A stretch of DNA of 64,000 nt from a virus. Taxonomy: Duplodnaviria; Heunggongvirae; Uroviricota; Caudoviricetes. Of the stretch, positions 3,759-8,989 are shown one piece after another. The translations under genes and the position numbers were made by a program. The first letter of the stretch is position 1, and each line of letters begins with the position of its first letter. Where the stretch lies: positions 1-64,000 of IMG/VR virus record IMGVR_UViG_2579778606_000002; one strand, written 5' to 3'. Under the pieces are notes generated by a model. It searched no databases, was not told the DNA's origin, and saw only the letters and a program-made list of their open reading frames with translations.

Positions 3759-4148
3759 ATGGGCTTCCCTTCTCCTGCGGCGGATTATGTTGAAAGCCGA
3801 ATTTCTCTTGATCAGCAACTAATCAGGCATCCATCAGCAACCTACTTCATGCGGGCAGCTGATGGCCATCACCGTGAGGGAATATTGCAGGGTGCTTTGC
3901 TGGTGGTTGATTCCTCGCTTACTCCGGTTGATGGTTCTCTGCTTGTGTGCGCTATGGAGGGTGAATATCGCATAAAGAGATACAGGAAGTATCCGCGCCA
4001 GCACCTGGAGGATTTAAGCACCGGGAGGAAAGAGGCGTTACCAGTGGATGACGATGGATGCACGGGGAGTAATGCTGTTTTTGGTGTGATCACTCATGTC
4101 ATCAATGATGTCCGAAGTGGGGAATTTGATGATTGTCCGGTGATTTAA
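3759..4148 (+). CDS. humD: HumD, UmuD'-like S24 peptidase (translesion synthesis accessory)
   Basis: GFPSPAADYVE...LDQQLIRHPSATYF...GDLLVVD...VFGVITHVIN matches UmuD; lacks the UmuD N-terminal 24 aa like P1 HumD; LexA box upstream. Confidence 0.8.
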   Translation: MGFPSPAADYVESRISLDQQLIRHPSATYFMRAADGHHREGILQGALLVVDSSLTPVDGSLLVCAMEGEYRIKRYRKYPRQHLEDLSTGRKEALPVDDDGCTGSNAVFGVITHVINDVRSGEFDDCPVI

Positions 4149-4220
4149 GCTGCAAAGTGCTGGTGCTTTATACCTGTGAAGTTTATAGTTGTGTACACAT
4201 AACGAGTACATGAGGTGTTT

Positions 4221-4442
4221 ATGCAATCCATTAACTTCCGTACCGCGCGCGGCAACCTTTCTGAAGTGCTCAACAATGTTGAAGCCGGGGAAGAGGTTGA
4301 AATCACCCGCAGAGGCCGAGAGCCAGCAGTAATTGTCAGCAAGGCTACTTTTGAAGCCTACAAAAAAGCGGCGCTGGATGCTGAATTTGCATCCCTGTTT
4401 GACACCCTGGACTCCACCAACAAGGAACTGGTTAACCGATAA
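4221..4442 (+). CDS. phd: Phd antitoxin (prevent host death)
   Basis: [49 protein letters not shown]... matches P1 Phd as I recall it; ATG at 4221 with GAGG upstream (ORF track start 4215 is GTG). Confidence 0.85.
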
Positions 4443-4822
4443 TGAGGCATATATCACCGGAAGAACTTATTGCGCTTCATGATGCGAATATAAGCCGCTA
4501 CGGCGGCCTGCCGGGAATGTCAGATCCGGGTAGGGCAGAGGCCATTATCGGGAGAGTTCAGGCCAGAGTTGCCTACGAAGAGATCACCGACCTTTTCGAA
4601 GTCTCCGCCACCTACCTGGTGGCTACAGCGAGAGGGCATATATTCAATGATGCCAATAAGCGTACCGCGCTAAACAGTGCGCTGCTATTTCTACGCCGTA
4701 ACGGTATACAGGTATATGATTCTCCCGTGCTGGTGGAACTTGCGGTGGGGGCTGCAACTGGTGAAATCCCCGTATCTTCAGTAGCGGAAAAACTACGTGA
4801 ACTATATGGTTCCAATATTTGA
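4442..4822 (+). CDS. doc: Doc toxin (death on curing, Fic-fold kinase)
   Basis: 126 aa, [39 protein letters not shown]... matches P1 Doc; TAATG overlap with phd. Confidence 0.85.
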
Positions 4823-4827
4823 AAAGA

Positions 4828-4849
4828 AGCCCGCTCAACCAAGCGGGCT
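4828..4849. terminator. GC-rich hairpin AGCCCGC-N7-GCGGGCT between convergent genes (doc and 4903..5700); T-runs on both sides, likely bidirectional terminator
   Basis: Inverted repeat read directly; followed by TTCTTTTC on minus strand and TTTTTTC downstream on plus strand. Confidence 0.45.
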
Positions 4850-4902: not shown

Positions 4903-5700
4903 TTAGGCGTCAGCATCAGCATCCTCTGCTTCCACATCTGCCGCGACTTCATCGGACTGTTCTTCTTTGGCCTGTTCTGCAATCGCCGCACGGCATTTCG
5001 CCCTGGCGGTAGCGATAGCCTCAACTTTCACGTCATTAGGAATACTTGAGGTGACATACATATCCAGTTCTTCAGCACGGAAGACTGTTTTGCCCAGGAA
5101 TTCATCAAGCATCCAGGTTAAGGAAAAGTCGCAGGAAATCAGGTCTACTTCGCCTTCCGCGCCGTTTGGGAAATGGATAAATATCTGTTTGCCCAGGCCA
5201 AGCACGCGACAAGCAGCCATCATTACTGCAAGTTCCAGGTCTTTGTTTTCACCTGCTACTGGTTGATCCACACCAGTAATAGTGCCGTTCAAATGGATAT
5301 TATATGGCTGATATTTAGAGATGCGTTCTACACGCCATGTGCCGGTTAAGGTTCCCTGGCGGAAGATTATTGGCGTGACCGAAAGCGACAGCTCTCGAAT
5401 GAGTTGTTGCGCTATGGCTGGGTCATACAGGGGATCTAACGCGATGCATCCATAAGACTGCGCCAGTTCAAACAATTCTTCCTGTGTGCGCTGAATGCCT
5501 CTTGCCGTAATAAAACGTCTGACTCCCGTTTTCCCATCACGCCAGATAGCAATGCCATTCTCACTATCTAACTCTTCGTCTAAGCCCAGGTATGTAAGGA
5601 TGGTTCGCTCAATGGTAGCAAAGGGCAGGGACATATCATCGTTTACATCCACCAGCAGGCCATTACGCAGGCGATATTGAATGTTTTTGGTATTTTCCAC
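4903..5700 (-). CDS. hypothetical protein with acidic C-terminal tail (…DVEAEDADADA)
   Basis: 265-aa ORF, first gene of a minus-strand block ending at convergent terminator. Confidence 0.5.
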   Translation of the reverse strand: MENTKNIQYRLRNGLLVDVNDDMSLPFATIERTILTYLGLDEELDSENGIAIWRDGKTGVRRFITARGIQRTQEELFELAQSYGCIALDPLYDPAIAQQLIRELSLSVTPIIFRQGTLTGTWRVERISKYQPYNIHLNGTITGVDQPVAGENKDLELAVMMAACRVLGLGKQIFIHFPNGAEGEVDLISCDFSLTWMLDEFLGKTVFRAEELDMYVTSSIPNDVKVEAIATARAKCRAAIAEQAKEEQSDEVAADVEAEDADADA

Positions 5701-5706
5701 GTTAAA

Positions 5707-6369
5707 TCACTCCACAACAAACCAGTCACAGGCCAGCAGGTCGCCAACTGAAGGCACCCACGGAACAACTACACCTTGTGCATTTTTTAAGGCGAAATAA
5801 GCACCATACGGAACGAGGTCGCCGGGAAAATATCCCTTAATGGCTTCCATTCGTGCCGGGTACTGTCCTTCAGGAACCAGCCAGCAGAATTGGTTTTCGC
5901 CGTTCCACCCACGTCGGGCAACTTTCTTGCCATCCTTCAGCCACATCAGCGCGTCAGAAAAGTCGGCTGCTTCAAGGTCGATTTCTTCTTGTAGAGTAGC
6001 GATACCGCCAGCAGAAATAGTTACGTCCCTGGCTGTAATGAATGTCACCCCATTGTGACCTTCAATGCTGAGCGATACCCCATTTTCGGAGGCGTCGTTA
6101 ACCCGGCTATAGCATTTTTCAAATGCTTTCTCTGGCACATAGACCAGATAGCCATTTTCAGCAGTGACGAGATATCCTCCTATTTGCGGTCGGAATTTTT
6201 CCAAGAACACACCATCAACACGAAGCGTCATTCCTTTTGGCTCAACGACTTCGATACTGCCAAAAATGGGCGCATAAGCTTCGCCGACAATAACAATATC
6301 TTTGATTTTCGATGCCCGAATGATGCTGTGGCTTTTGTATTTGGGGAACACCTGAAAAGTGCTGGCCAT
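5707..6369 (-). CDS. two-domain protein with C-terminal DUF2829 (Tad2-like) domain
   Basis: C-terminal ALMWLKDGKKVARRGWNG...VPWVPSVGDLLACDWFVVE fits the DUF2829 signature (A..LK.GKKVAR.GWNG ... PW..S..DLLA.DW.V). Confidence 0.5.
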   Translation of the reverse strand: MASTFQVFPKYKSHSIIRASKIKDIVIVGEAYAPIFGSIEVVEPKGMTLRVDGVFLEKFRPQIGGYLVTAENGYLVYVPEKAFEKCYSRVNDASENGVSLSIEGHNGVTFITARDVTISAGGIATLQEEIDLEAADFSDALMWLKDGKKVARRGWNGENQFCWLVPEGQYPARMEAIKGYFPGDLVPYGAYFALKNAQGVVVPWVPSVGDLLACDWFVVE

Positions 6370-6383
6370 AATCTTTCCTCTAC

Positions 6384-6878
6384 TTAAAACTTTTCGTACT
6401 GAAGCGGTGTACGCTTGATTTCAATGCGGTCTTCCGATGTGCTACCAAAGCCACCAGCACCTCGCTCTGTTTCATCGAGTTCATCAACTTCTACCAGCGA
6501 TACCGGTTCAACACGCTCAAAAATGCCTTGCATGACCGCCATTCCAGGCTTGAGGCAAACACCTTCACCACCAGGATCTGTAATCAGTTTTGCCATGATT
6601 TCACCGCGATAATCGGAGTCGATAATTCCTACGCAGTTAGCCAGGCGCGTATGCTTTTTGCAGCGCAATCCGGAACGAGGATAGAGTTTCAGACACCAGC
6701 CAGGAGGGATCGCCATAGCGAGGCCGGTATGCACCCACCAGCTTGAGGAAATAGCGCCGTTGCTATCGATACCCGGCGTTATTTCAACAGCAACAAAATC
6801 CATCGCCGCCGATCCGGCGGTGGCGTAAACGGGGAGTTTTGCCGCCGGATGAAGGCGTTTCACTTTCACGTTAATCAT
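6384..6878 (-). CDS. dut: dUTP diphosphatase (dUTPase)
   Basis: Conserved dUTPase motifs PRSGL, GIIDSDYRGEI, RGAGGFGST; overall collinear with E. coli Dut. Confidence 0.75.
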   Translation of the reverse strand: MINVKVKRLHPAAKLPVYATAGSAAMDFVAVEITPGIDSNGAISSSWWVHTGLAMAIPPGWCLKLYPRSGLRCKKHTRLANCVGIIDSDYRGEIMAKLITDPGGEGVCLKPGMAVMQGIFERVEPVSLVEVDELDETERGAGGFGSTSEDRIEIKRTPLQYEKF

Positions 6879-7363
6879 TGCTTTTTAGCTCTCCGGGTAA
6901 ATGTATAAATCCGGCGTTTGATATGCGGAGCGGTCGGAACGGAGACGCAGGTATTCTCGATAACACCTTGTTCCTCCAGCGATCGCACAGCGCGCAAGAA
7001 CTGTGATGCATCACCACCGCCAGACAGCCAGAATTTGCGGGCATAGACGCTGCCATTACGGATAATTTCTGCGATCACCCGCGCTTGCGTCTGGCTTTCT
7101 CGATAGCCAAAGAGTTCTCTTGCCTCTCCTTGTGGGATAGCCAACTGATAGCCTTTCCCGCTACGGTGACGGACAAAACCGTGAGCAATGAGGTTCTTCA
7201 GCTCATTTCTGGTGCGGATACACCCGTACTCAGGGAACTGTGTGTTGATATCACCAGGCTTATGCCATTCATCAGGACTATCAGCCAGGAGGGACAGAAG
7301 TTTCCCTGACAGCTCAGGATTAGTGGTTGGATAGCAGTTCAGGGATGGGTAGTAAGTTTTCAT
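6875..7363 (-). CDS. hypothetical protein, 162 aa, basic C-terminus
   Basis: ORF in operon context, 4-nt overlaps with neighbours. Confidence 0.45.
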   Translation of the reverse strand: MKTYYPSLNCYPTTNPELSGKLLSLLADSPDEWHKPGDINTQFPEYGCIRTRNELKNLIAHGFVRHRSGKGYQLAIPQGEARELFGYRESQTQARVIAEIIRNGSVYARKFWLSGGGDASQFLRAVRSLEEQGVIENTCVSVPTAPHIKRRIYTFTRRAKKQ

Positions 7364-7704
7364 TTGCGCCCCCTTGCCGGATAGCGCCCGGCATTTGCAT
7401 CAGGGGCAATGAAGCCGCTGGTGGGGCGAGTGAAAACATGGTTAATTTTCTCGGTCATAGCGCGATAATTTTCCTGATAGTGGGCCAGGAGTTTTTCAGC
7501 AGCAATGACGGTTACTTTCCGGACGTAGCGTTCAGCTTCCTCCAGATTTCGCCAGTTTTTTTCGAGGGTAAACACGGGAACGGCATCAAGTCCGGTCATA
7601 ACACCGAACACCACGACCGCCTGGTCGCGCTTAACGCCCGCAGTGAAGGTTATGGTGTAACCGTCAACAGTGAAGCGTTTTGATTCCGTAATACGATTGT
7701 GCAA
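7360..7704 (-). CDS. hypothetical protein, 114 aa
   Basis: ORF downstream of operator-like motif at 7763..7772. Confidence 0.4.
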   Translation of the reverse strand: MHNRITESKRFTVDGYTITFTAGVKRDQAVVVFGVMTGLDAVPVFTLEKNWRNLEEAERYVRKVTVIAAEKLLAHYQENYRAMTEKINHVFTRPTSGFIAPDANAGRYPARGRK

Positions 7705-7776: not shown

Positions 7777-8805
7777 TTATGAATCCATCAGGCGACTATT
7801 TGCACCAACGGATGCCCCGCTACGGCGCAAATATCGCATAAGTGTTTCGGGCTTTTTCCATGTGCCTTCCTGCATGATCTCGACCATTGACACCTGTTTC
7901 TCAGCCATATCAATTGCCGCACCAACACGCGCACTATGGCCTGTCCACGTCCGGTATCTTCCCTTGTTCGGCGTGGCATCTCGTTTGTTCAGCAACCCCC
8001 AGGCATCGCTGAATATTTTCTCCATTGCAGGTGCAGTAAGGGGCGTTGTCGTGATTCTGGCCTTATTACTGCGGTGTATTGGCGGGAATAGCACCGCGTC
8101 CGGATGTTCTCGAAGTCCGGACACCTCCAGCCAGTCGTTCAGTACGGCGGTAGTGTAACGAGAAAGCACCTTATCAAGTCCGGCGGCGGTCGTGATGGTC
8201 TTCGTGTGTGAAATATGCAGCGTTACAGTGTCACCTCTTTGGTCCAGATCTCCGACACGGATGCGCGAGATTTCTGACATACGCATCAGGGTATTGTATG
8301 CCACGAAGAGAAACGCCCGATTGCGCAGGTCCACCAGCCGCTCGGAACGGGACAGCAACACGTCGAGCAATTTCAGATCATCCCACCGCAACGGTATAGC
8401 CTGGCCTGTTCGCTCGCCTTTTTCCGTTGCCGCTTCGCGCCGGATGCGCCGCATGGCCAGAGACACACTTTTATCGTCCGACAGCGGCGGGAGGCCACAT
8501 TGCGAAAGCAGCATGTTAAGCATGGCATAGTGCTTATCAATGGTGGTCGAAGCCAGATCGGCCTCATGCAACTGGAGAAGATACTCGCGGGCCATTTCCG
8601 GCGTAATCGGGAACCAGGGGCGCTGGCGCGAGTTACACCACCGCGCCCAGGAATGAAACACCAGACGGAGATCACGAAGTGTATTTGGGGCATAAGCTCC
8701 CTGGTCGTTCATGAACTGCATAAAGTTTTTTGCAGCTTCCTGGTATTCGGTGCCAATATCGCGCAGAAAACCACCAGAACCGCCGGAGATAACTAGTTCA
8801 CCCAT
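7777..8805 (-). CDS. dre: Cre-family tyrosine site-specific recombinase (Dre-like)
   Basis: 342 aa; collinear with Cre (…WFP..PE..R.YLL.L....LA..TI..H...LNML...SGLP.PSD...VSL.MRRIR…HSARVGAA.DMA…) and near-identical to what I recall of D6 Dre; cognate rox site 150 bp upstream. Confidence 0.85.
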   Translation of the reverse strand: MGELVISGGSGGFLRDIGTEYQEAAKNFMQFMNDQGAYAPNTLRDLRLVFHSWARWCNSRQRPWFPITPEMAREYLLQLHEADLASTTIDKHYAMLNMLLSQCGLPPLSDDKSVSLAMRRIRREAATEKGERTGQAIPLRWDDLKLLDVLLSRSERLVDLRNRAFLFVAYNTLMRMSEISRIRVGDLDQRGDTVTLHISHTKTITTAAGLDKVLSRYTTAVLNDWLEVSGLREHPDAVLFPPIHRSNKARITTTPLTAPAMEKIFSDAWGLLNKRDATPNKGRYRTWTGHSARVGAAIDMAEKQVSMVEIMQEGTWKKPETLMRYLRRSGASVGANSRLMDS

Positions 8806-8957: not shown

Positions 8958-8989
8958 TAACTTTAAATAATGCCAATTATTTAAAGTTA
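8958..8989. other. rox: rox-type recombination site: 14-bp inverted arms TAACTTTAAATAAT / ATTATTTAAAGTTA around a GCCA spacer
   Basis: Read directly; identical to the 32-bp rox site I recall for Dre; lox-like architecture upstream of the recombinase gene. Confidence 0.8.

Follow-up and report, generated by a model that had tools for sequence, protein, structure and literature searches.

What does a protein of 220 amino acids (aa) do that ends in a Tad2-like domain and begins with a long stretch of other sequence? The question is raised by the open reading frame (ORF) at positions 5707 to 6369, minus strand, of a 64,000-nucleotide (nt) stretch of phage DNA (Caudoviricetes; positions 1 to 64,000 of the IMG/VR virus record IMGVR_UViG_2579778606_000002), which as a whole is called the window below. 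The protein consists of an N-terminal OB-fold domain like that of the phage L protein Dec, a variable linker and a C-terminal Tad2 (DUF2829) domain. We regard it as probably a modular anti-defence protein of a D6-like phage-plasmid, in which a signal sponge of the ModTad2 clade is joined to an independent OB accessory module. The Tad2 half adds a new member to a known family, and this reading is already present in the database annotation, as RefSeq names the gene 'DUF2829 domain-containing protein'. The added value of the analysis is the identification of the N-terminal domain and of a family-wide link between this domain and sponges. The domain identities, the predicted folds, the conserved residues, the synteny and the fusion statistics are shown by the analysis, and what is said of function, from oligomeric state and ligand to the anti-defence phenotype and any activity of the OB domain, is inferred throughout.

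The preliminary description of the locus, made from the sequence alone, had assigned the C-terminus of the ORF to DUF2829. The C-terminal sequence that it quoted is present, and the Pfam profile PF11195 ('Thoeris anti-defense 2-like', i.e., Tad2-like, formerly DUF2829) matches aa 136-219 over profile positions 2-73 of 73, with E 1.6e-22 and 80.2 bits at a cut-off of 25 bits. PHROG 872 spans the whole length of the protein (E 3.6e-52). In a phmmer search of PDB sequences the best match is ModTad2 (9EIB, 8V3E; E 6e-21), followed by HgmTad2/AcrIIA7 (E 9e-12), SPO1 Tad2 and SptTad2. The Tad2 domain is 44.9% identical to ModTad2 over 89 aa and about 36% identical to each of SPO1 Tad2 and HgmTad2. 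The alignment to ModTad2 has a single one-residue gap, which means that the insertion between strands beta2 and beta3 has the ModTad2 length.

The predicted structure agrees with this assignment. In an AlphaFold2 model of the monomer, built with 30 homologs, the C-terminal domain takes up the Tad2 fold, which is characterized by an N-terminal helix, an antiparallel beta-sheet and helices in the beta2-beta3 and beta4-beta5 loops. Its predicted local distance difference test (pLDDT) values are 75-91, except in the loop 177-185 (block means 50-51). The preliminary description had named structure prediction followed by Foldseek as a check, and the best 24 matches are all Tad2 structures (probability 1.0, target template modelling scores 0.60-0.84), headed by ModTad2 bound to His-ADP-ribose (His-ADPR; 9eib_B, E 1.7e-7, probability 1.0). 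The crystallographic contacts to the cyclic ADP-ribose signal gcADPR are W25, N26, W73, S76 and D79 in SPO1 Tad2 and W21, N22, G23, W87, S90 and D93 in HgmTad2. The corresponding residues of the 220-aa protein are W155, N156, W204, S207 and D210, with G157 in the place of HgmTad2 G23. Among 30 full-length homologs, W155, W204, P206, S207 and D210 are invariant, and N156 is not. Sequence, predicted fold, pocket residues and context thus strongly support the earlier proposal of a Tad2-type signal sponge with an anti-defence role, and the C-terminal domain is, by homology, very probably a working sponge.

Tad2 proteins are typically stand-alone proteins of about 90-105 aa, and the 220 aa found here, with an extra OB-fold and linker, exceed this range. 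Small size is not a strict property of Tad2, because Tad2 fusions are documented: Tad2 remains functional when fused at its N- or C-terminus, as in Acb4-Tad2 of phage Pm86 (10.1101/2025.07.12.664507). An N-terminal extension also has a precedent in the solved 158-aa AcrIIA7 chain. Among the homologs on phage-plasmids, the region of Tad2 aa 153-210 shows at least four types of beta2-beta3 insertion (ModTad2-like, very short, short, and a long type with 'ELEINFDSP'), and in some alleles the pocket motif GWNG is changed to EWKG and VPWVPSVGD to SVWLPSVDD. This variety of insertion types and pocket motifs is consistent with diversifying specificity.

The ligands suggested in the preliminary description, gcADPR or cyclic oligonucleotides, need refining in view of the closest characterized relative. 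ModTad2 is an inhibitor of type II Thoeris that binds His-ADPR (bioRxiv 10.1101/2024.01.03.573942); it binds cUMP and cCMP in a second pocket and blocks Pycsar (10.1101/2025.08.24.671296), and binds 2'cADPR (10.64898/2025.12.03.692087). It does not bind 3'cADPR, and other Tad2 proteins have 3'cADPR, N7-cADPR or cyclic dinucleotides as ligands. By analogy with the solved Tad2 proteins, the Tad2 domains would assemble into a homotetramer with pockets between the protomers, and these pockets would sequester TIR-derived signals of the ADP-ribose type, such as His-ADPR or 2'cADPR. The ModTad2-like beta2-beta3 insertion may add binding of cyclic pyrimidine mononucleotides. With the signal sequestered, the effector of Thoeris, and possibly that of Pycsar, would never be activated.

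The N-terminal part, described earlier as an unrelated domain of about 135 aa, is real and can be resolved into an OB-fold of 93 aa and a variable linker of 37 aa; it is not simply unrelated, as it belongs to a Dec-like family that is recurrently fused to sponges. Residues 1-93 are predicted with a pLDDT of 90.7 and a predicted template modelling score of 0.80, and their elements are arranged as b0, b1-b3, helix, b4-b5, helix, just as described for phage L Dec and its OB-fold. A profile built from 15 N-terminal domains matches Dec (PDB 6E3C) across its whole OB-fold with E 1.7e-6, and profile and predicted fold together identify the domain as a Dec-like OB-fold. The linker has pLDDT <50 over aa 92-131 in the monomer model, and homologs lack this segment, have a helical one or carry other modules in its place. 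When aa 88-135 were searched against the PDB nothing significant was found, the best match being a VgrG beta-helix (E 0.23); this lends no support to a trimeric stalk like that of Dec or of tail fibres. An identity of the OB domain with Lockin was also weighed and dismissed, since INPHARED contains no Lockin, a hexameric beta protein, and the OB domain occurs in 37 INPHARED records. No Lockin entry is found among the PDB fold matches listed.

The fusion partners of the OB family bear on what the N-terminal module might do. An exhaustive search with the OB profile gave 4,464 representatives of clusters with E ≤ 1e-3, of which 1,686 have E ≤ 1e-10. Partners were counted in 143 of the top 150 representatives, and all 143 fall into the functionally uncharacterized PHROG 11049. 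Eight Pfam families co-occur with the OB domain in this set, with Sequestin (PF21825, 13/143) and Tad2 (PF11195, 11/143) the most frequent, followed by Acb4 (PF13876, 4/143), the Acb2/Tad1 hairpin (PF24729, 2/143), DUF4406 (1/143) and three further families with one weak match each (E 1.6e-4 to 8.2e-4). Partners recognized by PHROG also include a MazG-like pyrophosphatase and a nucleoside 2-deoxyribosyltransferase. The domains are found as OB+Tad2, in the swapped order Tad2+OB (P0093), as OB+Tad2+Sequestin (P0079, P0099), and with an extra domain between OB and Tad2 (P0059, P0096, P0102). Since 41 of the 143 representatives are no longer than 110 aa, many members of the family stand alone. A clean swap of the sponge cassette is seen in Klebsiella phages, where the same early-operon slot encodes OB+Tad2 in SopranoGao (L005:3986-4582) and OB+Sequestin (PF21825) in vB_KpnP_ZX1 (L004:3986-4510), with the OB domain and linker nearly identical. 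In another lineage (contigs of about 91 kb) a single slot holds Tad2+Sequestin or a different N-terminal domain with Tad2.

The OB domains have a near-invariant polar and aromatic signature, HK.V.A..I ... P..GGY.V.Y.DGY.S.SP...FE.GY. It is common to phages of unrelated hosts (E. coli, Klebsiella, Ralstonia, Pseudomonas and Caulobacter, plus jumbo phages); in sequence, the capsids of these phages are unrelated. Of its 22 positions, the SopranoGao protein keeps 22, a P1-like homolog 20, the 220-aa protein 15 and Dec 11. The module also shares the pattern of Sequestin, with fused and stand-alone forms; frequent fusions of Tad2 to other sponges are the pattern through which Sequestin was discovered (Tal et al., 2025; 10.1101/2025.07.12.664507). 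As the partners are almost exclusively sponge or nucleotide-enzyme domains, in either order, as a stand-alone form of about 90 aa exists, and as H, K, Y, D and S residues are conserved, the OB module is most likely an independent accessory anti-defence module. It may be pictured as a separate bead on the flexible variable linker, and its most likely activity, judged from sequence conservation and partners, would be the binding of a small ligand, with a further nucleotide-type ligand as our best guess; protein targeting or shielding, and inertness in an eroded copy, were also considered and are weighed below.

Two observations concern the wider reach of the motif. Three giant proteins, P0123 (4559 aa), P0127 (3748 aa) and P0141 (2182 aa), contain 8-18 partial matches to OB b3-b5 (the GGY...DGY region), which suggest a repeat form of the OB motif outside small phage proteins. 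In six other proteins (P0059, P0068, P0072, P0076, P0078 and P0096) the same Tad2 domain is joined to different modules in an N-terminal or middle position; the end motif shared by these modules, PGDWI.K..DG.F......FE..Y, resembles the b4-b5/helix signature of the OB domain, and the modules match PHROGs 419, 4502, 1810 and, in part, a 'nucleotide pyrophosphohydrolase' PHROG.

A broader idea is that the Dec-like OB-fold is a widespread new phage counter-defence family, a sponge or an enzyme whose target is an immune signal of nucleotide type or the precursor of such a signal, with phage L Dec as a derived member recruited to the capsid; the fusion pattern that revealed Sequestin would then have revealed this family too. 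This is a tentative proposal, which we consider conceivable but somewhat doubtful. If the family does serve counter-defence, the 220-aa protein would be an inhibitor with two warheads, or one that has recently degenerated.

Several points weigh against the modular reading of the 220-aa protein. In the Tad2 pocket, the adenine-contacting residue (SPO1 T78, ModTad2 S78) is replaced by glycine (G209), and the second-shell residues are L194, N196, Q198 and V202, compared with I/L63, T65, D67 and H/A71 in SPO1 Tad2/ModTad2; because of these differences the ligand cannot be assigned from the sequence. In the OB domain, seven of the 22 signature residues are replaced (K15S, V17I, Y70A, D72N, S76V, S78V and G86C). 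Phage D6 orf114 (146 aa; L008:2483-2923) is an in-frame deletion of the OB core, which keeps the first 20 aa, the linker and Tad2 with the junction MNNMATKELFKFLPKYKAHK|KNGTTVIITDD..., and in the D6-like lineage the OB part may contribute nothing. The published sponge survey explicitly excluded proteins with the PDB 6E3C domain, and the Methods sentence stating this exclusion is the sole mention of a fusion of a Dec-like (6E3C) domain to a sponge that we found in the literature. The combination has thus already been seen by others, but it is studied in no paper that we found. Finally, the promoter and terminator of the operon are consensus matches only, and the terminator-like sites in the region are not more numerous than expected from shuffled sequence.

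The OB domain of the 220-aa protein is partly eroded and probably dispensable for Tad2 function. It could go further and be an inactive evolutionary remnant, so that the gene would encode a Tad2 sponge with an inert N-terminal extension. Besides the seven replacements and the loss of the OB core in D6, this is favoured by the E. coli variant P0053 (241 aa), a single dUTPase-Tad2 polypeptide without OB whose Tad2 half is 98% identical. Judging by D6 orf114 and P0053, the Tad2 half is the consistently retained part. The fold of the OB domain is nevertheless predicted confidently, full-length relatives occur on 232 plasmids, and close P1-like relatives keep nearly the whole signature, which suggests purifying selection, or at most a shift in specificity. 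We therefore consider a mere remnant unlikely.

A little less probable still is that the OB domain targets or shields by attaching to the surface of a protein, for example the capsid or portal of the phage itself or a sensor or effector of the host, and so masks the trigger or positions the sponge at the source of the signal. The homology to the capsid-binding OB-fold of Dec and the flexible linkers of variable length, which would suit a tether, fit such a role, as do partners that differ in symmetry (dimer, tetramer, hexamer) and thereby point to a separately folding bead rather than a part of the sponge oligomer. However, the OB residues are near-invariant across phages with unrelated capsids, Dec itself keeps just half of the signature, and the partners include nucleotide enzymes (the MazG-like and deoxyribosyltransferase domains). 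A universal small ligand explains this conservation better than diverse protein surfaces would.

That the 220-aa protein is a structural capsid decoration protein, with DUF2829 as an exposed distal domain of non-sponge function, is very improbable. The homology to Dec, the beta-rich segment that follows the OB-fold as in Dec, and the annotation of the Dolphis and Jeremy homologs as 'capsid decoration protein' would favour it. A Dec-type decoration protein would be expected to be encoded or expressed with head genes, though, and the gene lies outside head modules, in a recombinase/dut/isaA operon here, in the ssb operon of P1-like phages and in an early operon after the repressor switch in Lastavirus. 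The domains fused to the OB-fold are sponges for signals inside the cell, the linker shows no significant similarity to the Dec stalk and is absent in some homologs, and the sponge pocket residues are conserved. OB relatives are also annotated as 'head-tail adaptor', and the relatives concerned by these labels in Pseudomonas phage Dolphis (gp96, L007:3486-3980) and phage AhaGv sit among small hypothetical early-type genes. The decoration and head-tail annotations are probably homology transfers from Dec.

E. coli hosts are not known to carry type II CRISPR, which counts against the DUF2829 domain being an anti-CRISPR like AcrIIA7 or having another role unrelated to signal sequestration. Homology to AcrIIA7 (HgmTad2) supports this last alternative, which is the least probable of all, since Li et al. 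could not confirm that HgmTad2 or its homologs inhibit Cas9 and demonstrated that HgmTad2 is a sponge.

The modular anti-defence reading is in keeping with the genomic setting, the features of which are listed in Table 1.

Table 1. Features of the Tad2-fusion gene and its surroundings (positions in the window)
Feature	Position	Strand	Details
Phd	4215-4442		addiction module
Doc	4442-4822		addiction module
Terminator-like hairpin	4829-4844	-	just 3' of isaA-like ORF; putative operon end; consensus scan only
isaA-like ORF	4903-5700	-	265 aa; PHROG 2326 (E 4.3e-124); downstream gene of operon
Whole ORF	5707-6369	-	220 aa; Dec-like OB-fold, variable linker, Tad2 domain; ORF list, sequence
C-terminal Tad2 (DUF2829) domain	5707-5979	-	aa 131-220 and stop codon; PF11195
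Variable beta-rich linker	5980-6090	-	aa 94-130; SENGVSLSIEGHNGVTFITARDVTISAGGIATLQEEI
N-terminal Dec-like OB-fold domain	6091-6369	-	aa 1-93; PHROG 11049 family
Ribosome-binding site	6373-6380	-	GAGGAAAG; ends 3 nt upstream of ATG; read from sequence
dUTPase (dut)	6384-6878	-	PF00692 (E 3.7e-13); PHROG 135 dUTPase (E 1.8e-59); upstream gene of operon
ORF162	6875-7363	-	162 aa; PHROG 6669; uncharacterized; overlaps dut at 6875-6878
ORF114	7360-7704	-	114 aa; PHROG 1968; uncharacterized; overlaps ORF162 at 7360-7363
Dre-type tyrosine recombinase	7777-8805	-	PF00589, PF02899; first gene of putative operon
Promoter-like site	8976-8949	-	TTGGCA-16-TATAAT; sigma-70-like, 11/12 matches; promoter scan, consensus match only
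rox site	8958-8989		32 bp; exact match, 0 expected by chance; overlapped by promoter-like site

The preliminary description had placed the gene beside a dUTPase, in an accessory block between an addiction module and a recombinase, and this arrangement is borne out: the dUTPase is the upstream neighbour, Phd/Doc lie on one side and the tyrosine recombinase on the other, and P1-like and D6-like elements vary in what this slot holds. The six genes of the operon follow each other on the minus strand in the order Dre recombinase, ORF114, ORF162, dut, Tad2-fusion gene and isaA-like ORF; downstream of the recombinase they overlap or are separated by gaps of at most 14 nt. The Tad2-fusion gene starts with the ATG at 6369, its ribosome-binding site comes directly after the dut stop codon, and it would be co-transcribed with the other five genes. 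DUF2829 genes also lie beside dUTPase genes in the Bacillus phages JL and Shanette. As in P1 and D6, a UmuD/HumD-like Peptidase_S24 ORF (3759-4148, plus strand) closely precedes phd/doc.

The recombinase shares 94% identity with that of phage D6 (Dre); the identity of the region is 98.6% to the E. coli plasmid pMUB-MIN14-1 and about 80% to phage D6. Together with the rox site, these identities place the window in a D6-like E. coli phage-plasmid. The rox sequence with which the site at 8958-8989 was compared is that of Sauer and McDermott (2004). The promoter-like site over rox resembles the cre promoters that overlap loxP in P1.

The isaA-like ORF comes after the Tad2-fusion gene in D6-like and P1-like elements alike. 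D6 orf113 is annotated as 'similar to P1 gene isaA', the translations of the isaA-like ORF and P1 IsaA have motifs in common, and P1 isaA, a homolog of this ORF, comes directly after ssb. The ORF has a strongly acidic C-terminal tail (EEQSDEVAADVEAEDADADA). A 226-aa downstream gene in another phage-plasmid lineage was ruled out as an IsaA homolog, and P1 IsaA and IsaB were ruled out as homologs of the 220-aa protein, to which they have no similarity. P1 itself is without the Tad2-fusion gene, which in the P1-like phages SJ46, Ro157c2YLVW and RCS47 lies between ssb and isaA (interrupted in RCS47); in Lastavirus it occupies the third position behind the repressor switch. The P1 operon containing ssb and isaA is annotated with a C1 operator. 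A consensus search with up to three mismatches found no P1 C1 operator in the window, so C1-type early control is suggested for the P1-like relatives alone. Relatives of the gene were found in 297 plasmid records, and the E. coli plasmid NZ_AP019805.1 encodes a 100% identical protein.

Phage-plasmids of the P1-like and D6-like kinds are frequent in E. coli, Salmonella and Klebsiella of clinical and animal origin. If such an element brings its own sponge for TIR or cyclase signals, its spread and the resistance of its host to other phages would both be affected. The OB module is linked to every major sponge family yet has been set aside in published surveys, which makes it a concrete candidate for a new class of immune-signal antagonist, and the 'capsid decoration protein' annotations of its relatives may be wrong.

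Among the known systems, ModTad2 (also MoTad2), from a Myroides odoratus prophage, is the best match to the Tad2 domain in both sequence and fold. Their beta2-beta3 insertions are equal in length and similar in sequence (P.G.Y....IK..F.G..V.Y..Y), the core pocket motif WNG...W.PS..D is identical, and the five core pocket residues are kept. The two proteins differ in that ModTad2 is a stand-alone protein of 89 aa, to which the 220-aa protein adds 130 aa of OB-fold and linker, and in that ModTad2 S78 is replaced by Gly and T65, D67 and A71 by N, Q and V. SPO1 Tad2 (gp34.65; 8SME/8SMF/8SMG) and HgmTad2/AcrIIA7 (8KBI-8KBM) share the Pfam family, the fold and the gcADPR-contacting W, N, W, S and D. 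In contrast to the ModTad2-like insertion, that of SPO1 Tad2 is different and occluded, and that of HgmTad2 is 17 residues longer and forms a cyclic-dinucleotide pocket.

The sponge-sponge fusions (Acb4-Tad2 of Pasteurella phage Pm86, Tad2-Sequestin and Acb4-Sequestin) resemble the 220-aa protein in linking Tad2 to a second small phage module, and relatives at syntenic slots combine Tad2+Sequestin (P0061) or OB+Tad2+Sequestin (P0079, P0099). Here, however, the partner is a Dec-like OB-fold and not a recognized sponge. Phage L Dec has a homologous OB-fold, the motif KPxxGGYL....G.L.Y.....FE..Y and a beta-rich segment after the fold, but it lacks the HK motif and half of the family signature. 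Moreover, Dec is part of the virion and has a trimeric stalk, whereas the 220-aa protein is encoded in an accessory operon of early type and carries an intracellular sponge domain.

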